Assembly (NCBI GenBank): GCA_016184345.1 | Contig: JACPCV010000005.1 | Location: forward strand, 97,017 to 161,016 | Direction of reading: 5' to 3' | DNA from: Candidatus Woesearchaeota archaeon | Lineage (GTDB): Archaea > Nanobdellota > Nanobdellia > Woesearchaeales > UBA10216 | DNA length: 64,000 nt | Part shown: piece after piece, positions 5,379-57,308 of the stretch | Layout of the letters: every line of letters begins with the position of its first letter | How positions within the stretch are numbered: position 1 is the first letter of the stretch | The notes under the pieces: model-generated | The model's input: only the letters and a program-made list of their open reading frames with translations | Told to the model about the DNA's origin: nothing | Databases searched by the model: none | Made by a program: the position numbers and the translations under genes

Positions 5379-5476
5379 GGGAAAGAGGTTCAATCCAGAA
5401 AACGAAAGCTTTTTGATTAACCTTTCCCAAATCGTGCAAACGCACGATTGGGCCCAGTCGCTGGAGGCGACTTGGG
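5379..5476. repeat. Composite hairpin element (long hairpin plus twin bulged hairpins)
   Basis: Hairpin gggaaagaggttcaatc..gattaacctttccc (5379-5428). Twin hairpins cccaaatcg..cgattggg (5426-5452) and cccagtcgc..gcgacttggg (5453-5476). Same modules as the proS insert at 34257-34345. Confidence 0.85.
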
Positions 5477-5492
5477 TTCTTAAAAAGGTTAA

Positions 5493-6320
5493 ATGATAAA
5501 GAAAACATTCACAGTTGCAAAGAATACCGCGGCATTCTTCATTGCTGCAGTAAACGCGTTCAACCCGTTTGCTTACGGCGGCATCACGCAAAAGTCGCTG
5601 CAGGCAGTCATTATGCAGCTGCTTTACCTACTGCTGATTGTTACCCTGGCAATGGCTGCATTAACAATCCCTTCACTGGCATCGGTAGGAAGCAAAAGCC
5701 AGCTTCCCCTTGACAAGTTCTCAAATCTCACCTTGAAAGCGGAAATAGCCACGAAAGCACCAATTGAATCAGAACTCTTCTGGCTTGGCAACGCAAAGGT
5801 CCTTGTCAACACGACAGCAGATGCGGCAGCAACAGGCAAATATGACTTTGTGCTCACCAGCACTGAGCTAAGGAGCAGGCCGTTCCCCTGCCTCTTCAGG
5901 CAGGAGCTTTGCAGCATTCTGGGAATAAAGCACAAGGCAGTGCCAATCAAAGAGCTTGACCTTGCCCAGAGGGCACAAAAAAACAGGGCAGCGCTCCAGG
6001 CTTTCATCCTGCTGCTCCTGCCTGGCCTTATAATCCTGCTGTTCCTGTCAATGGTCGTCAAGTACGTCGCAGTTTCAGCAGCAGCTGCGCTCATAGGCTT
6101 TATTATCCTTAAGATAGCAAGGAAGGACACCGGCCTTTTTGACGCCCTTAAGATAGCATTTTACGCTGCAAACGCGCTTGTAATCCTGGACGCTGCGCTC
6201 TTCCTGCTCAGGCACACAGGCGCTGAAATACCAAGCTTCATTCCCCTGGCGGCGTACCTTGTCCTAATCATAGCCGCAGTCATGGCGAACGAGCAAAGGC
6301 TTTCCGACAGCATGATTTAA
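5493..6320 (+). CDS. Polytopic membrane protein of unknown function (end of pilin cluster)
   Basis: 275-aa ORF with several long hydrophobic segments. No recognisable motif. Confidence 0.55.
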   Translation: MIKKTFTVAKNTAAFFIAAVNAFNPFAYGGITQKSLQAVIMQLLYLLLIVTLAMAALTIPSLASVGSKSQLPLDKFSNLTLKAEIATKAPIESELFWLGNAKVLVNTTADAAATGKYDFVLTSTELRSRPFPCLFRQELCSILGIKHKAVPIKELDLAQRAQKNRAALQAFILLLLPGLIILLFLSMVVKYVAVSAAAALIGFIILKIARKDTGLFDALKIAFYAANALVILDAALFLLRHTGAEIPSFIPLAAYLVLIIAAVMANEQRLSDSMI

Positions 6321-10913: not shown

Positions 10914-10987
10914 CGCCCTCTCCGGGATTTGAACCCGGATTAAAAGCTCCGGAAGCTCTTGTCATGTCCGGATTAGACCAAGAGGGC
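10914..10987 (-). tRNA. tRNA-Arg (CCG), intron-less
   Basis: The reverse complement folds as GCCCTCT/AGAGGGC acceptor, anticodon arm AGAGC-TTCCGGA-GCTTT, and T-arm CCGGG-TTCAAAT-CCCGG. Discriminator G; no encoded CCA. Confidence 0.85.
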
Positions 10988-11001: not shown

Positions 11002-11115
11002 AAACGCCCCCACTGGGAATCCGCGCCCTGATGGGCTTGGAACCCAGTGGATGGATGGCTAAACGCCCCCACTGGGTGACTTCGCCTTTCGGCTCAGGAC
11101 CCATTGGTGGCTAAA
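11002..11115 (-). repeat. Two extra tandem copies of the tRNA-Arg 3' end (T-stem plus acceptor plus trailer)
   Basis: aaacgcccccactggg occurs at 11002-11017, 11061-11076 and 11113-11128; the last copy belongs to the tRNA at 11116-11248. Copies 2 and 3 have T-stem-like helices closing non-tRNA loops. Confidence 0.8.
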
Positions 11116-11248
11116 CGCCCCCACTGGGAATTGAACCCAGATCTCAGCCTGCCTGCTGACGGATACTCGCCGTCGTTTTTGGGTTGAACCTTTTTCGCAA
11201 AAAAGGGTCATTCGCGGGGCCGCATCTTGTCCGTTGGACCATAGGGGC
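11116..11248 (-). tRNA. tRNA-Arg (GCG, tentative) with a ~61-nt anticodon-loop intron
   Basis: Acceptor GCCCCTA/TGGGGGC. Anticodon stem CGGCC/GGCTG with loop CCGCGAA (C33 is atypical). Intron about 11150-11210, starting TGACCCTTTTTT. T-arm CTGGG-TTCAATT-CCCAG. Confidence 0.65.
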
Positions 11249-11250
11249 AT

Positions 11251-11340
11251 GACCTTCTTAGGAAGAATGTCACCGGAGAGGTGACATCCTTCGGCTACCC
11301 GCCGAAGTAAGGCCAATCAAGAAGCCTTCTCTTAAGCGGT
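11251..11340. repeat. Array of four short hairpins directly upstream of the tRNA-Arg(GCG) 5' end
   Basis: ttctt/aagaa, gtcac/gtgac, cttcggc/gccgaag and agaag/cttct stems. On the tRNA strand the segment begins GCCCCTT (11362), which mimics the tRNA 5' acceptor strand. Confidence 0.6.
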
Positions 11341-11368
11341 CGAACGCATTGTGTTGAAGGGGCGTTTA

Positions 11369-25131: not shown

Positions 25132-25256
25132 GACTTTGCAAACTTAACAGCTGTTATAAAAATTTATCTGTGTGACAGCTATTTCTTGCCAGCAAAAAGT
25201 ATATAAACCGTCCGTCAACGCTTTCTTGATTGACCTTCTTTTCTAAAGAAGGTCAT

Positions 25257-25449
25257 GCCCCGGTAGCTTAGACGCTGCCAACAGCGGAGCAACAGGTAGA
25301 GCGTGTGACACTTCGGTGGCAATCCATCGAGAGCTACGAAGCTGTTACTTGCTTAGCAGGGACCACAAATCCTTTAAAAGGAGTGGAGGGTCGCCAGTTC
25401 GAGACGCTTCTAAGCTAGTGCTTGAAGCGAAAAATTCTGGCCCGGGGCG
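25257..25449 (+). tRNA. tRNA (isotype unresolved) with insertions in the D-loop, anticodon region and T-loop
   Basis: Acceptor GCCCCGG/CCGGGGC. D-arm GCTT-AGAC[~21-nt insert 25274-25294]GGTA-GAGC. T-arm GCCAG-TTCGAGA[~32-nt insert]-CTGGC. About 70 extra nt lie in the anticodon region. I could not assign the anticodon by eye. Confidence 0.65.
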
Positions 25450-25464
25450 CTTATTATTATCATC

Positions 25465-25611
25465 GGGCCCATAGTTCAGCTTGGCTAGAACGCCGCACAA
25501 CCTTTTTCACAAAAAGGTTGATCAAAAACCTTGGAAAAGGTTGGGCGAGTCTGATATTCGGTTAGCGAATCAGTCAGGCGGAGGTCCTCGGTTCAAGTCC
25601 GAGTGGGCCCA
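25465..25611 (+). tRNA. tRNA-Ile (GAT, tentative) with two introns
   Basis: Acceptor GGGCCCA/TGGGCCC, D-arm GTTC..GAAC, T-arm CTCGG-TTCAAGT-CCGAG. The anticodon arm reconstructs as CCGC[53 nt, 25497-25549]T-CTGATA[19 nt, 25557-25575]A-GGCGG. Confidence 0.6.
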
Positions 25612-30497: not shown

Positions 30498-30709
30498 CGA
30501 GCCCGCCGGGACTTCCTCACTGGCGTTCGGGGCATAAATCGCTGATGCGATTGTGCCCAGTCGGTTTTGCACCGACTTGGGCATTGCCGCCTCGGGCGCC
30601 AATATTTGAACCCAGATCAATCGGTTGCTTCTTCTTCGTTTTTGATTGGCCTTTTTCCTAAAAAGGTCATCCGAAGCCGATCGCACTGTCCGGATTGTGC
30701 TACAGGCCC
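30498..30709 (-). tRNA. tRNA-Arg (TCG) with a 45-nt anticodon-loop intron and a 93-nt T-loop insertion
   Basis: Acceptor GGGCCTG/CGGGCTC (two G-U pairs), D-arm GCAC..GTGC. Anticodon arm ATCGG-CTTCGGA[30625-30669]-CCGAT. T-arm CTGGG-TTCAAAT[30511-30603]CCCGG. Confidence 0.7.
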
Positions 30710-44012: not shown

Positions 44013-44684
44013 ATGGTTACTGTTGACGAGCTCAAGAAGCTAAGCCCTGAAGAAAGAATCAAGCGGCTGAAAGAGCTTGAGGAGGAGCGCAAGAAGGAGA
44101 TAGCAGAAGCGGAAGAGCTAATCAAGGAAACAGCAAAGGAGCTTGCCGAAGCCGAGGAAAAAAGGAGGATACCGATTCCAGAGGCAAGGGCAACCGACCT
44201 GTCCACGCTTGACACGCTTGAGGAAAAACAGCTCGTCGCAACACACCACCTCCTTGCAGCGGAAACAACAGCAACCCACCAGCCGCAAAGCCCGCAGCAG
44301 CCAAAAAGCCTGGAGGAAGTCGCAGCAGAGGAAGCGCCTGCAGCAGGCCAACAAACGCAGCATGACCTTTTAGGAAAAGGTCAATCAAAATTACAAAAGC
44401 CCGAATACGCCATAGGCACGGAGCAACAGAGGCCAGCGTTCGGGGAATACCTTTCAAAATCGCAGCAGACAGTAACAGGAGGAACTCCCCCGGGCAGCAG
44501 CGAGCTGGAAAAGATTACGGAAATTTACAAGGACAGGGCAGTAACCGGAGCCGAGACAGGAGATGCCCAGCAAAAATACTTTGGCACGCAACAGCACGTA
44601 ACCGGAGGATATGAGCTGAGGAAAAGAGAGGAAGAGGACAGAAGGGAAAGAACAGAGTACAGAAGAAGGGGAGGGCCTGCTTAA
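44013..44684 (+). CDS. Uncharacterised 223-aa coiled-coil/low-complexity protein (operon gene 2)
   Basis: The N-terminus ELKKLSPEERIKRLKELEEERKKEIAEAEELIKE is coiled-coil, followed by a Q/T/E-rich tail. Its stop abuts the ATG of gene 3. Confidence 0.55.
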   Translation: MVTVDELKKLSPEERIKRLKELEEERKKEIAEAEELIKETAKELAEAEEKRRIPIPEARATDLSTLDTLEEKQLVATHHLLAAETTATHQPQSPQQPKSLEEVAAEEAPAAGQQTQHDLLGKGQSKLQKPEYAIGTEQQRPAFGEYLSKSQQTVTGGTPPGSSELEKITEIYKDRAVTGAETGDAQQKYFGTQQHVTGGYELRKREEEDRRERTEYRRRGGPA

Positions 44685-50314: not shown

Positions 50315-50436
50315 CGGGCCCACAGGGACTTTCAAGCCTTTTTGGTTGAGCTTTTTGTGCGCTCACAAAAAGGTCATTTGAACCCTGGACCTGTTCGTTA
50401 AGAGCGAACCGCTCTACCAGGCTAAGCTATGGGCCC
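50315..50436 (-). tRNA. tRNA-Lys (CTT) with a 48-nt insertion in the T-loop
   Basis: GGGCCCA-TA-GCTT..GAGC-G-GTTCG-CTCTTAA-CGAAC-AGGTC-CAGGG-TTCAAAT[50328-50375]CCCTG-TGGGCCC-G. Confidence 0.8.
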
Positions 50437-50494
50437 GTAAACAACAGCGACAAAGAATTTGTTTAAAAAGATTGCTGTTGCCTATCAAAGAGTG

Positions 50495-50605
50495 CGGCGT
50501 GGCCGGGAACTTCACCAGCGCCTAGGCACTGATTTGAACCCGGATACCAAAGGGTTTGGTACTGGTTTCTTAGACCTGCGCGATACCAGCTTTCGCATCC
50601 ACGCC
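50495..50605 (-). tRNA. Class II tRNA (long variable arm), apparent anticodon AAG (Leu, tentative), 24-nt T-loop insertion
   Basis: Acceptor GGCGTGG/CCACGCC, D-arm GCGA..TCGC. Anticodon arm CAGGT-CTAAGAA-ACCAG with an A-A mismatch. Variable arm TACCAAA-CCC-TTTGGTA. T-arm CCGGG-TTCAAAT[50508-50531]CCCGG. Confidence 0.6.
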
Positions 50606-55697: not shown

Positions 55698-57059
55698 ATG
55701 GTGCTTGATAACCTTGGCGAATCGCTCCGCAATGCCCTGCAAAAAGTAGCCAGGAGCATGTTCGTAGATGACGCTGCAGTCAATGAGCTAATCAAGGAGC
55801 TGCAAAGGGCGCTGCTGCAGTCTGATGTGAATGTCAAGCTCGTCTTCAGCCTGAGCCAGCGCATCAAGGAAAGGATTCTCAAGGAGGAAACGCCTGGCGG
55901 GCTCACTAAAAGGGAATTCCTCGTAAAAGTAGTCTATGAAGAGCTCGTCAAGTTCCTCGGCGGGGAAGAAAGCCAGCTTGACGCTTCAGCAATACCAACA
56001 ATAATAATGCTCTCGGGGCTTTTCGGCTCTGGAAAAACAACAACCGCGGCCAAGCTGGCAAGGTACTTCTCAAAGAGGGGCTTAAAAGTTGCCATGGTGC
56101 AGCTTGACGTCTACAGGCCGGCAGCGCTTGACCAGCTGCAGCAGCTTGGGAAGCAGATTGGAGTGCCTGTTTTCGGCAACAAAAGCGAGAAAGACCCGCT
56201 AAAGATTTTCAGCAGCTGCCAGAACGAGCTGAGAAAGTTTGACGTCGTGATAGTTGACACCGCAGGAAGGGATGCGCTGTCAGCAGAACTGATTGCAGAG
56301 CTGAAGGCTGTTGCTGCCGCTGTCCAGCCGAATGAGAACCTGCTCGTGATAAGTGCTGACATAGGCCAGGCAGCTGAAAGGCAGGCAACAGCATTCCATG
56401 ACGCATGCAAAATCACAGGTGTAATAGTAACGAAGCTTGAAGGCACTGCAAAAGGGGGAGGGGCATTGAGCGCCTGCTCGGTTTCAGGGGCGCCGATAAA
56501 GTTCGTGGGCGTTGGGGAGAAGATTGAGGACATGGAAAAGTTCAACCCCAAGGGCTTCGTAGGACGCTTATTGGGCATGGGTGACATAGAGGCGCTGCTT
56601 GAAAAGGCAAACGAAGCGGTGACAGAGGAAGAAGCAAAGGACATGAGCGAGAAATTCCTGAAAGGCGAGTTCACGCTTTTGGATCTCTACGAGCAGATGC
56701 AGGCAATCAAGAAAATGGGGCCGATAGCAAAGGTAATGGAGATGATTCCCGGATTTGGCCAGCTCAAGCTGCCAAAAGACGTCCTTGACGTTCAGGAGGC
56801 AAACCTCAAAAAGTGGAAATTCGCAATGGACAGCATGACGAAAAAGGAGCTTGAAGACCCTGAAGCAGTTACTTCAGACAGGATAGAGCGCATCGCCAAG
56901 GGCTCAGGCATCGGCACAGGAGAGGTAAAAGACCTGCTGAAGCAGTACAGGCAAAGCAAAAAGGTAGTCAAGATGTTCAAGGGAGCAAGCCCAAAGAAGA
57001 TGCAGCAGATGATAGGCAAAATGGGCGGGATGAAAGGCATGGAAGGGCTGAAGGGCTAA
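55698..57059 (+). CDS. srp54: Signal recognition particle protein SRP54
   Basis: GLFGSGKTTTAAKLA, DTAGR, TKLEGTAKGG, and a Met-rich M domain (MQQMIGKMGGMKGMEG). Confidence 0.95.
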   Translation: MVLDNLGESLRNALQKVARSMFVDDAAVNELIKELQRALLQSDVNVKLVFSLSQRIKERILKEETPGGLTKREFLVKVVYEELVKFLGGEESQLDASAIPTIIMLSGLFGSGKTTTAAKLARYFSKRGLKVAMVQLDVYRPAALDQLQQLGKQIGVPVFGNKSEKDPLKIFSSCQNELRKFDVVIVDTAGRDALSAELIAELKAVAAAVQPNENLLVISADIGQAAERQATAFHDACKITGVIVTKLEGTAKGGGALSACSVSGAPIKFVGVGEKIEDMEKFNPKGFVGRLLGMGDIEALLEKANEAVTEEEAKDMSEKFLKGEFTLLDLYEQMQAIKKMGPIAKVMEMIPGFGQLKLPKDVLDVQEANLKKWKFAMDSMTKKELEDPEAVTSDRIERIAKGSGIGTGEVKDLLKQYRQSKKVVKMFKGASPKKMQQMIGKMGGMKGMEGLKG

Positions 57060-57107
57060 ACCTTCTTTGTCCTGCAACAGATTTATAAATCGTTCTCAAA
57101 TCTCGTA

Positions 57108-57177
57108 GGGTTGATAAGGGCGCGCTGCCTCATCGCCCCCGTCGTGGGGTTGATAAGGGGTGGAGCCCCTTATTGCC
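57108..57177. repeat. Palindromic element: half copy (57108-57120) plus full copy 4 (57146-57177), abutting the tRNA-Ser 5' end
   Basis: gggttgataaggg is the half copy. ggggttgataagggg-tggag-ccccttattgcc is the full copy, and its last three nt are the first nt of tRNA-Ser. Confidence 0.85.
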
Positions 57178-57308
57178 GGGATCGCATAACCTGGTATTGC
57201 GCAAGCCTGGAAACAGAAGCGCGATAGCTTGTTCCCGCAAGGGTGTCTGGGTTCAAAACACGGCGACGCAAAAGAGTCGTCGCTGCTGTGAAAGTCCCAG
57301 TCCCGGCG
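57175..57308 (+). tRNA. tRNA-Ser (GGA) with a 13-nt anticodon-loop intron and a 37-nt T-loop insertion
   Basis: Acceptor GCCGGGA/TCCCGGC, discriminator G. Anticodon arm CAAGC-CTGGAA[13 nt]A-GCTTG. Long variable arm TTCCCGCAAGGGTGT. T-arm CTGGG-TTCAAAA[57259-57295]CCCAG. A T-tract follows. Confidence 0.8.

Follow-up and report, generated by a model that had tools for sequence, protein, structure and literature searches.

Interrupted tRNA genes, T-loop introns and a shared 33-nucleotide cassette in a groundwater Woesearchaeote

The stretch of Candidatus Woesearchaeota DNA analysed here, 64,000 nucleotides (nt) long and called the window throughout, contains eight tRNA genes. Seven of them are interrupted, by 14 short introns in total (13-93 nt), which amounts to 1.75 introns per tRNA gene. 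Five genes (Lys, Leu, Arg(TCG), Ser and Asn) carry an intron exactly at position 59/60 of the T-loop, while the remaining nine introns lie at positions 15/16, 30/31, 37/38 and 44/45. Some of the introns also contain a common sequence unit of about 33 nt, referred to below as the cassette. The genes are organized as follows.

10914-10987, minus strand: tRNA-Arg(CCG), the sole uninterrupted tRNA gene in the window
11116-11248, minus strand: tRNA-Arg(GCG); 61-nt canonical 37/38 intron with cassette (11211-11151), without a T-loop intron
25257-25449, plus strand: tRNA-Asn(GTT); introns at 15/16 (25272-25292, 21 nt), 30/31 (25308-25340, 33 nt), 37/38 (25348-25361, 14 nt), 44/45 (25369-25388, 20 nt) and 59/60 (25404-25435, 32 nt)
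25465-25611, plus strand: tRNA-Ile(GAT); 53-nt 30/31 intron with cassette (25497-25549) and 19-nt canonical 37/38 intron (25557-25575)
30498-30709, minus strand: tRNA-Arg(TCG); 45-nt canonical 37/38 intron (30670-30626) and 93-nt T-loop intron (30604-30512)
50315-50436, minus strand: tRNA-Lys(CTT); exons 50436-50377 and 50328-50315, 48-nt 59/60 intron (50376-50329)
50495-50605, minus strand: tRNA-Leu(AAG), class II; exons 50605-50533 and 50508-50495, 24-nt 59/60 intron (50532-50509)
57175-57308, plus strand: tRNA-Ser(GGA); 13-nt 37/38 intron (57213-57225) and 37-nt T-loop intron (57258-57294)

Exon-intron structure and conservation

An earlier reading of this DNA (the original prediction) had described T-loop inserts of 48 nt in Lys, 24 nt in Leu, 93 nt in Arg(TCG), 37 nt in Ser and 32 nt in the gene at 25257, here identified as Asn. 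These sizes are exact, and the endings are of the kind it described: GAAAGT, GAAGTT, GGAAGT, GAAAGT and AAAATT, in the same order. Its placement of the inserts at 59/60 fits the splicing geometry described below and agrees with intron-less orthologues, which read the predicted T-loops. It was likewise right about anticodon-arm introns (Arg(GCG), Arg(TCG), Ile, Ser and Asn), a D-loop intron (Asn) and an extreme intron density. The interval to which it was attached, 50315-50605, holds the Lys and Leu genes; the other genes lie elsewhere in the window.

Standard gene finders overlook most of these genes. ARAGORN at default settings and Rfam at its gathering threshold see only one tRNA in the window, Arg(CCG) at 10914-10987, and under a permissive threshold Rfam also reports 11116-11248, scoring 36.8 bits with 67 nt inserted, as well as part of 50379-50436. 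Across default ARAGORN, ARAGORN with one intron allowed, and Rfam at gathering or E-value thresholds, one to three of the eight genes are recovered; ARAGORN left to place the anticodon intron itself wrongly labels Arg(TCG) as Gly(tcc). All eight were obtained jointly from our own scans, which sought a T-stem/TTCRA/T-stem pattern with an insert or a T-arm plus a matching acceptor stem, and from ARAGORN rerun once candidate T-loop inserts had been deleted; the eighth, Arg(TCG) at 30709-30498, is the gene that the original prediction had named. The original prediction had proposed ARAGORN as a check: at default stringency the program calls all eight in silico spliced products canonical, each a normal cloverleaf with a correct anticodon loop. 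The exons of every interrupted gene are colinear within 111-212 nt, so that none is a split or permuted gene, and the window holds no uninterrupted duplicate of an interrupted tRNA.

Splice sites were placed by a bulge-helix-bulge (BHB) rule, which requires a 4-bp central helix H within a 5′ strand h-H-NN^N-h′ and a 3′ strand h′-H-NN^N-h (^ marks the cut). The central helix pairs fully (4/4) in 10 of the 14 introns, at 3/4 in two and at 2/4 in two. Both tRNA-Ile introns reach 4/4, as does the Lys T-loop intron, which contains the cassette variant TGACCTTTTTGTGAGCGCACAAAAAGCTCAACCAAAAAG and pairs TTCA with TGAA. The 37/38 intron of Arg(TCG), composed of the cassette plus GAAGAAGAAGCA, also pairs at 4/4 (CTTC/GAAG). 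The T-loop intron of the same gene is relaxed, its inner helix ATTGGCG/CGCCAGT lying one nucleotide off register. All nine introns outside the T-loop obey the same rule, with central helices that are exon-specific. For tRNA-Asn, whose spliced sequence is GCCCCGGTAGCTTAGCAGGTAGAGCGTGTGGCTGTTAACCACAAGGTCGCCAGTTCGAGTCTGGCCCGGGGCG, a first brute-force model (stem TGTGA/TTGCA, four introns) was dropped because the geometry of its second intron was not that of a BHB; the five-intron model that replaced it was then borne out by orthologues.

These orthologues come from close relatives. Groundwater Candidatus Woesearchaeota metagenome-assembled genomes (L003-L012) encode an SRP54 that shares 83-93% identity with that of the window (55698-57059), whose exact protein occurs in two Logan assemblies only. 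Other genes of the window specify class I LysRS, ProRS, GyrB and an archaeal helicase. Together, the SRP54 identity and the archaeal genes assign it to a DPANN archaeon of the Woesearchaeota.

In the close relatives, tRNA-Ser(GGA) sits downstream of SRP54 with almost identical exons throughout. Its T-loop intron measures 37 nt in the window and 57 nt in L005, and is missing from L003, L007, L008 and L012, which read TTCAAAT. The L006 gene has an intact TTCAAATCCCAG; the 59 nt that look like an insert there separate the gene from a second copy of the tRNA 3′ end. Anticodon-arm introns of tRNA-Ser vary in number and position among the relatives. The 13-nt Ser intron of the window, whose BHB central helix pairs at only 2/4, has a feature of its own: its 3′ end together with A38 (GCGCGATA) is perfectly complementary to the 3′ strand of the D-arm (TATTGCGC, 57194-57201), a pairing that covaries in L012 (TATCGCGC/GCGTGATA). 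Among Lys(CTT) orthologues, L011 has an unrelated 45-nt 59/60 intron, L007 an insert at 53/54, and L003, L004 and L008 no T-arm intron. The Leu(AAG) 59/60 intron recurs in L007 and L004 with a sequence different from that of the window; A34 of this tRNA (anticodon AAG, loop 50566-50572) is conserved in both.

Orthologues of tRNA-Asn were taken from the neighbourhood of the adjacent prolyl aminopeptidase gene in L203, L205 and L206. They contain two, three and four introns, respectively, compared with five in the window. L206 shares the first four introns, lacks the T-loop intron and reads TTCGAGT as predicted. L203 has an uninterrupted anticodon arm, AGTGA-CTGTTAA-TCACT, and the anticodon stem that the window assembles from three exons, TGTGG/CCACA, covaries with this AGTGA/TCACT. 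The intron-less orthologues, whose evidence is independent of splice-site choice by the BHB rule, and the covarying Asn stem therefore fix the 59/60 junction and argue against pseudogenes.

The interrupted loci could in principle be decaying pseudogenes or insertion-damaged genes that are not processed to tRNAs. Unspliced, they escape ARAGORN and Rfam; Arg(GCG) has C33 in place of the near-universal U33 (anticodon loop 11211-11217), the window Leu has an A28·A42 mismatch where L007 has T28, and two introns have weak central helices. However, the exons are near-invariant between genomes whose proteins are ~80-90% identical, while flanks and intron interiors diverge. The Asn anticodon stem and the BHB helices show compensatory changes, excision yields perfect cloverleaves in all eight genes, and uninterrupted duplicates that could replace them are absent from the window. 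Decay is consequently very improbable.

Self-splicing group I or II introns, or remnants of elements integrated at tRNA attachment sites, are scarcely conceivable as the source of the inserts. Group I introns do occur in Woesearchaeota rRNA genes (PMC6125680), a LAGLIDADG open reading frame (ORF) lies in the L006 tRNA-Ser locus, and tandem tRNA 3′-end copies follow Arg(GCG). Yet inserts of 13-93 nt are far below ribozyme size (~200 nt), and neither the window nor L006 gives an Rfam intron match. Their positions and flanks follow the BHB register, and duplications made by an integrase would repeat the 3′ part of the tRNA, not add sequence within the T-loop.

As judged from the sequence, these loci are very probably functional, single-copy tRNA genes interrupted by short BHB introns spliced by protein enzymes. 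Several observations weigh against this reading. The central helix reaches only 2/4 in the Ser 37/38 and Asn 59/60 introns and 3/4 in Arg(TCG) 59/60 and Arg(GCG) 37/38, and several window introns lack an in-register inner helix. Since the BHB rule partly guided the choice of splice sites, the 4/4 counts are not fully independent of it. In addition, a phmmer search of 6458 ORFs from the window and the loci examined, which cover only part of the genome, found no EndA with an M. jannaschii EndA query.

The T-loop intron and its predicted splicing motif

The structure of the 59/60 introns was examined in a fixed-register alignment (A3) of 27 T-loop introns; besides those of the window, it includes examples from other Woesearchaeota loci and from two metagenome contigs. 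In these introns, the four nucleotides that end three positions before the 3′ strand of the T-stem pair with T54-R57. TGAA (or TGAG, TGGA) accompanies TTCA, whereas CGAA accompanies TTCG, and the pair between position 57 and its partner is A-U 16 times and G-C 6 times. Pairing amounts to 100% in the T-stem, 94% in the central helix and 74-81% in the first inner-helix pairs, which show many double changes. The whole structure is 84% paired; a one-column shift of the partner lowers this to 52-57%, and none of 500 shuffles reaches the observed value.

In the BHB geometry that sequence and comparison reveal, the T-stem is the outer helix. The 4-bp central helix pairs T54-T55-C56-R57 with YGAA, the four nucleotides that precede a two-nucleotide overhang at the end of the intron, and a hairpin within the intron forms the inner helix. 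The 5′ bulge consists of A58, A59 and the first intron nucleotide, and the 3′ bulge of the last two intron nucleotides plus T60. EndA is then predicted to cleave between nucleotide 59 and the intron and just before T60, after which an RtcB-type ligase would rejoin the exons.

This arrangement bears on the GAAGT-type endings, which the original prediction had pointed out. Such endings correspond to TGAA plus two bulge nucleotides plus T60, and they switch to CGAA where the T-loop reads TTCG. Since YGAA must pair with T54-R57 in this structure, the endings are a structural necessity and not a sign of shared descent. Outside YGAA-NN, no sequence relationship connects the window's five T-loop introns, and the 27 collected introns fall into many unrelated groups.

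Individual T-loop introns are nonetheless shared between tRNA species. The window Lys intron has 38 of 48 nt in common with the T-loop intron of L006 tRNA-Met, and the T-loop introns of L005 tRNA-Ser and L007 tRNA-Glu are clearly homologous (alignment A2). Because every tRNA supplies the exon half of this motif, namely the T-stem and TTCR, a 59/60 intron would carry all of its specific determinants and could fit any tRNA. Such portability would account for the high frequency of the site, its frequent gain and loss, and the presence of the same intron in different tRNAs. Candidate routes for movement are gene conversion via the conserved T-arm, reverse splicing and DNA insertion.

The cassette in introns, leaders and a coding sequence

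The cassette consists of a hairpin, RRACC-T5-N3-A5-GGTYY, and a tail, which is ATCAAAAAC in one subtype and AAAAAGCTCAACCAAAAAG in another. The module on which the original prediction had remarked is real: the pattern ACCTTTTT..AAAAAG..AYCAAAAA has three exact matches in the window and none in 100 shuffles, with a fourth variant in Arg(GCG). It is found in four of the 14 window introns and in one of the five T-loop introns. In alignment A1, the first ~33 nt are conserved in nine introns from six tRNA species and five genomes, at positions 29/30, 30/31, 37/38 and 59/60. The hairpin begins one nucleotide past the 5′ splice site and corresponds to the inner helix h′, and its stem covaries (TGACC/GGTCA versus CAACC/GGTTG). 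The 30/31 intron of L205 tRNA-Ile has identical ends (A...GGCGAG) and an unrelated hairpin in place of the cassette. The cassette is therefore not the intron itself.

A census with a relaxed pattern located 16 copies in 221.5 kb of the window's clade; neither 967 kb of other Woesearchaeota loci nor shuffled sequence yielded a match. Nine copies lie forward in introns, five lie reverse-complemented in leaders, and two are within coding sequence. The coding copy in the window is as follows.

44363-44390, plus strand: cassette copy TGACCTTTTAGGAAAAGGTCAATCAAAA, in frame within the conserved ORF 44013-44684, where it encodes HDLLGKGQSK

The product of this ORF is a Q/E-rich, conserved Woesearchaeota protein without a Pfam domain. 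The cassette segment, as HDLLGKGQSK or as the variant QNLFAEKGLSK, occurs in some homologues but not in others (loci L207, L208 and L209). In L207 DNA, AAACCTTTTTGCCGAAAAAGGTTTATCAAAAAC forms a clean insertion of 33 nt compared with L208. Of the three frames of the segment, the one used is the only one free of stops. No central helix can form around the coding copy, which was thus rejected as a BHB intron. A reading of the cassette as a C/D-box or K-turn element was also discarded, no convincing boxes being visible by eye.

The wider distribution was surveyed by a metagenome scan, of which only the tRNA-linked subset is informative. The scan picked up related motifs within tRNA introns and leaders on other low-GC contigs, along with many chance or unrelated matches in CRISPR arrays, bacterial promoter-like A-tracts and high-GC gut contigs. 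Some matches are worth recording in their own right. On unrelated low-GC contigs, L083 (489-597) has three module-like units in tandem with a 40-nt period and L149, L151 and L153 are also module-like, the L151 copies lying just upstream of protein start codons. The high-GC contigs L096, L099, L124, L126 and L141 match the module pattern and resemble a bacterial promoter region.

These data bear on the proposal that all introns, including those of the T-loop, are copies of one proliferating mobile intron, with the GAAGT endings and the module attesting common descent. The module common to four window introns and the near-identical T-loop introns in different tRNA species of related genomes fit that proposal, and intron transposition in Thermoproteales is documented in work cited by PMC4033280 and PMC10714607. 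On the other hand, the window T-loop introns share the YGAA-NN end only, and this end covaries with R57. The module occurs in just four of 14 introns, is missing from an orthologous intron with identical ends, and also appears outside introns in both orientations. Descent from one mobile intron is thus unlikely. The proliferation suspected in the original prediction stands insofar as intron sequences are shared between tRNA species (Lys/Met and Ser/Glu); sequence comparison leads us to conclude that the proliferating unit is probably the cassette and not a single intron family. The cassette is a clade-specific unit that fills the inner-helix slot, adjacent to the 5′ splice site, of introns with older ends.

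Leaders contain the cassette in exact reverse-complement form, just ahead of the tRNA gene. One to three tandem units, each made of GTTTTTGAT (a TTGAT-containing tail) and the hairpin, end one nucleotide before +1 in tRNA-Glu of L007 and L006 and in tRNA-Ser of L003, L005 and L010. A second leader family, GGGTTGATAAGGGG...CCCCTTAT, is found in other Ser and Glu leaders. The leader stretches comprise 25200-25256, 11249-11360 (minus strand) and 57085-57174 in the window, and the regions upstream of tRNA-Ser or tRNA-Glu in L003, L005-L008 and L010-L012. Leader ends (...GGTCAT^G and ...CCCTTATT^G) mirror the intron start (exon^ATGACC...), and orthologous tRNAs can have different leader hairpin families (L010 versus L011, L007 versus L008). 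The tRNA-Asn gene of the window has a leader hairpin as well.

25231-25256, plus strand: leader hairpin, a 26-nt palindrome TGACCTTCTTTTCTAAAGAAGGTCAT, between ancestral promoter-proximal sequence and tRNA-Asn +1

The ancestral promoter-proximal sequence is TTTCTTGAT. The hairpin is absent from L203, L205 and L206, where the TATA box lies 23-26 nt before +1. Across Woesearchaeota loci L003-L082, a TATA box, where recognisable, starts 31-35 nt (mode 32-33) before tRNA position 1, a spacing that implies very short 5′ leaders or none. Nanoarchaeum equitans is likewise reported to place its TATA boxes for near-leaderless tRNA transcripts.

A hairpin one nucleotide before tRNA position 1 would form, together with the acceptor stem, a helix-bulge-helix that might be cut by EndA instead of RNase P. 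The leader geometry is compatible with such a cut, and processing by RNase P is equally possible; a literature search on the RNase P status of Woesearchaeota found nothing. The leader units were also considered as promoters, with TTTTTGAT as the TATA box. This was rejected, as the distance to +1 varies from 25 to 35 nt and a canonical TATA box lies upstream, placed to start transcription at the first unit. No pairing between leaders and trailers was found by eye. A leader-type unit, TTTTTGAT plus TAACCTTT...AAAGGTTA, stands apart from tRNA genes at 5409-5492 (plus strand). Its loop is enlarged by two GC-rich hairpins, and it directly adjoins the ATG of ORF 5493-6320, which has no Pfam match.

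How the cassette came to occupy these sites can be viewed in several ways. Spread at the DNA level is most likely, with copies surviving wherever 33 extra nucleotides are tolerated or can be removed by splicing, introns and leaders being retention sites. One observation is not explained by simple tolerance: 14 of the 16 copies are in tRNA genes, which points to a function or targeting linked to tRNA. Runs of T5-T7 in the cassette, which would be expected to terminate archaeal transcription within the gene, also weigh against the reading of the interrupted loci as functional, spliced tRNA genes. A functional RNA or DNA signal of tRNA genes (processing, termination or protein binding), kept by selection and not selfish, is a possibility, though a doubtful one. 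This tRNA bias, the strict orientation (forward in introns, reverse-complemented in leaders), the covarying stem and the constant position of the hairpin next to an RNA processing site (exon^A-TGACC..., ...GGTCA-T^G1) speak for a signal, as do the similar motifs that other low-GC, DPANN-like contigs carry within tRNA introns and leaders. Against it, the cassette is present or absent at orthologous sites with no visible consequence, one in-frame copy is translated as part of a protein linker and has no surrounding BHB, and orthologous tRNAs bear different leader hairpins.

Alternatively, and tentatively, the cassette may be a miniature mobile element with a preference for tRNA genes, whose hairpin doubles as a BHB inner helix, so that it seeds or enlarges introns, and whose leader hairpins are cut by EndA. 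Bacterial palindromic mini-elements of the REP/PATE type have a ~30-nt hairpin, a conserved single-stranded flank, many copies in both orientations and insertion polymorphism. The cassette shares all of these traits but differs in its strong association with tRNA genes and its archaeal host, and no associated transposase was found, although no search aimed at one was made.

A further group of observations concerns tRNA 3′-end copies. Downstream of Arg(GCG) (11005-11130, minus strand), two extra tandem copies, CCCAGTGGGGGCG(TTTAGCCA), are each preceded by ~40-45 nt resembling a decayed T-arm with an insert. These stretches read ..GGCGAAGTCA followed directly by CCCAG, and CTGGGTTC followed by the bracketed caagcccatcagggcgcg and then by GATT and CCCAG. 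Similar tandem patterns occur in L044 (two exact 64-nt repeats), in tRNA-Ser of L006 and L053, and in L158. They could be attachment-site remnants, tandem duplications or traces of intron loss. In L006 (5510-6520), a 231-aa ORF for a LAGLIDADG_3 homing endonuclease (E 6e-17) is flanked on one side by 15 nt duplicated from the tRNA-Ser(GGA) 5′ end and on the other by the complete gene; Rfam gave no group I intron match in this insertion.

Known systems and significance

Several of these features have precedents. ARMAN-2 (Ca. Micrarchaeum) has introns at 59/60 in tRNA-Cys and at 53/54 plus 59/60 in tRNA-Pro, its epsilon2 EndA cleaves the 59/60 tRNA-Cys substrate in vitro, and ARMAN-4 and ARMAN-5 have a tRNA-Leu(AAG) with A34 (Fujishima et al. 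2011, PMC3239211). The window resembles these archaea in its DPANN host, its 59/60 introns and its A34 tRNA-Leu. It belongs to another phylum-level lineage, and 59/60 splicing has been assayed in ARMAN-2, whereas in the window it is predicted from the sequence. The window further differs in that a single gene can have as many as five introns and that several introns share a cassette. The enzyme may also differ: for DPANN other than ARMAN-2 the literature suggests an alpha4 EndA with an L3 loop in place of epsilon2 (PMC5829648). The same study found raised tRNA gene disruption, L3-loop EndA and many undetected tRNAs in DPANN archaea including a Woesearchaeote (Kaneta et al.).

In Thermoproteales, multiple introns per tRNA and similar introns in different tRNAs were reported by Sugahara 2008 and Fujishima 2010, as relayed in PMC4033280 and PMC8450103. 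The window shares with them BHB introns at many positions, several introns per gene, related introns across tRNAs and rapid gain and loss. However, Thermoproteales are Crenarchaeota with an (alpha-beta)2 EndA and at most three introns per gene, compared with five here. The unit shared in the window is a sub-intron cassette that also occurs in leaders and coding sequence. Of Thermoproteales-type transposition, similar introns across tRNA species are encountered here, while the whole intron as the moving unit is not. The split and tri-split tRNAs of Nanoarchaeum equitans and Caldivirga maquilingensis (PMC4033280, PMC10714607) likewise display sequence kinship between leaders and introns. In contrast to those, the window genes are contiguous and colinear, and in this clade the leader is the reverse complement of an intron copy and precedes position 1, not a 3′ half.

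T-loop 59/60 introns, A34 tRNA-Leu and introns shared between tRNAs are thus already known from ARMAN and Thermoproteales. What is new is the record-level density (14 introns in eight genes) and a single gene with five introns. The published maximum is three introns per tRNA gene, and in the richest genome 71 introns are spread over 46 genes (PMC8450103, PMC3239211, PMC4033280). The literature searched contained no archaeal tRNA with four or five introns and no description of the cassette.

A groundwater Woesearchaeote thus matches or exceeds the most intron-rich archaea known. Given that standard finders see one of its eight window tRNA genes, tRNA counts and completeness of DPANN genomes of this kind are badly underestimated. 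The universal exon half of the BHB would offer a simple reason why the T-loop is a hot spot and why 59/60 introns are portable. The occurrence of the cassette in introns, leaders and a protein linker provides a tractable lead on the origin of non-canonical introns, and if the cassette is indeed mobile, it would be a concrete source of the non-canonical introns of archaeal tRNAs.

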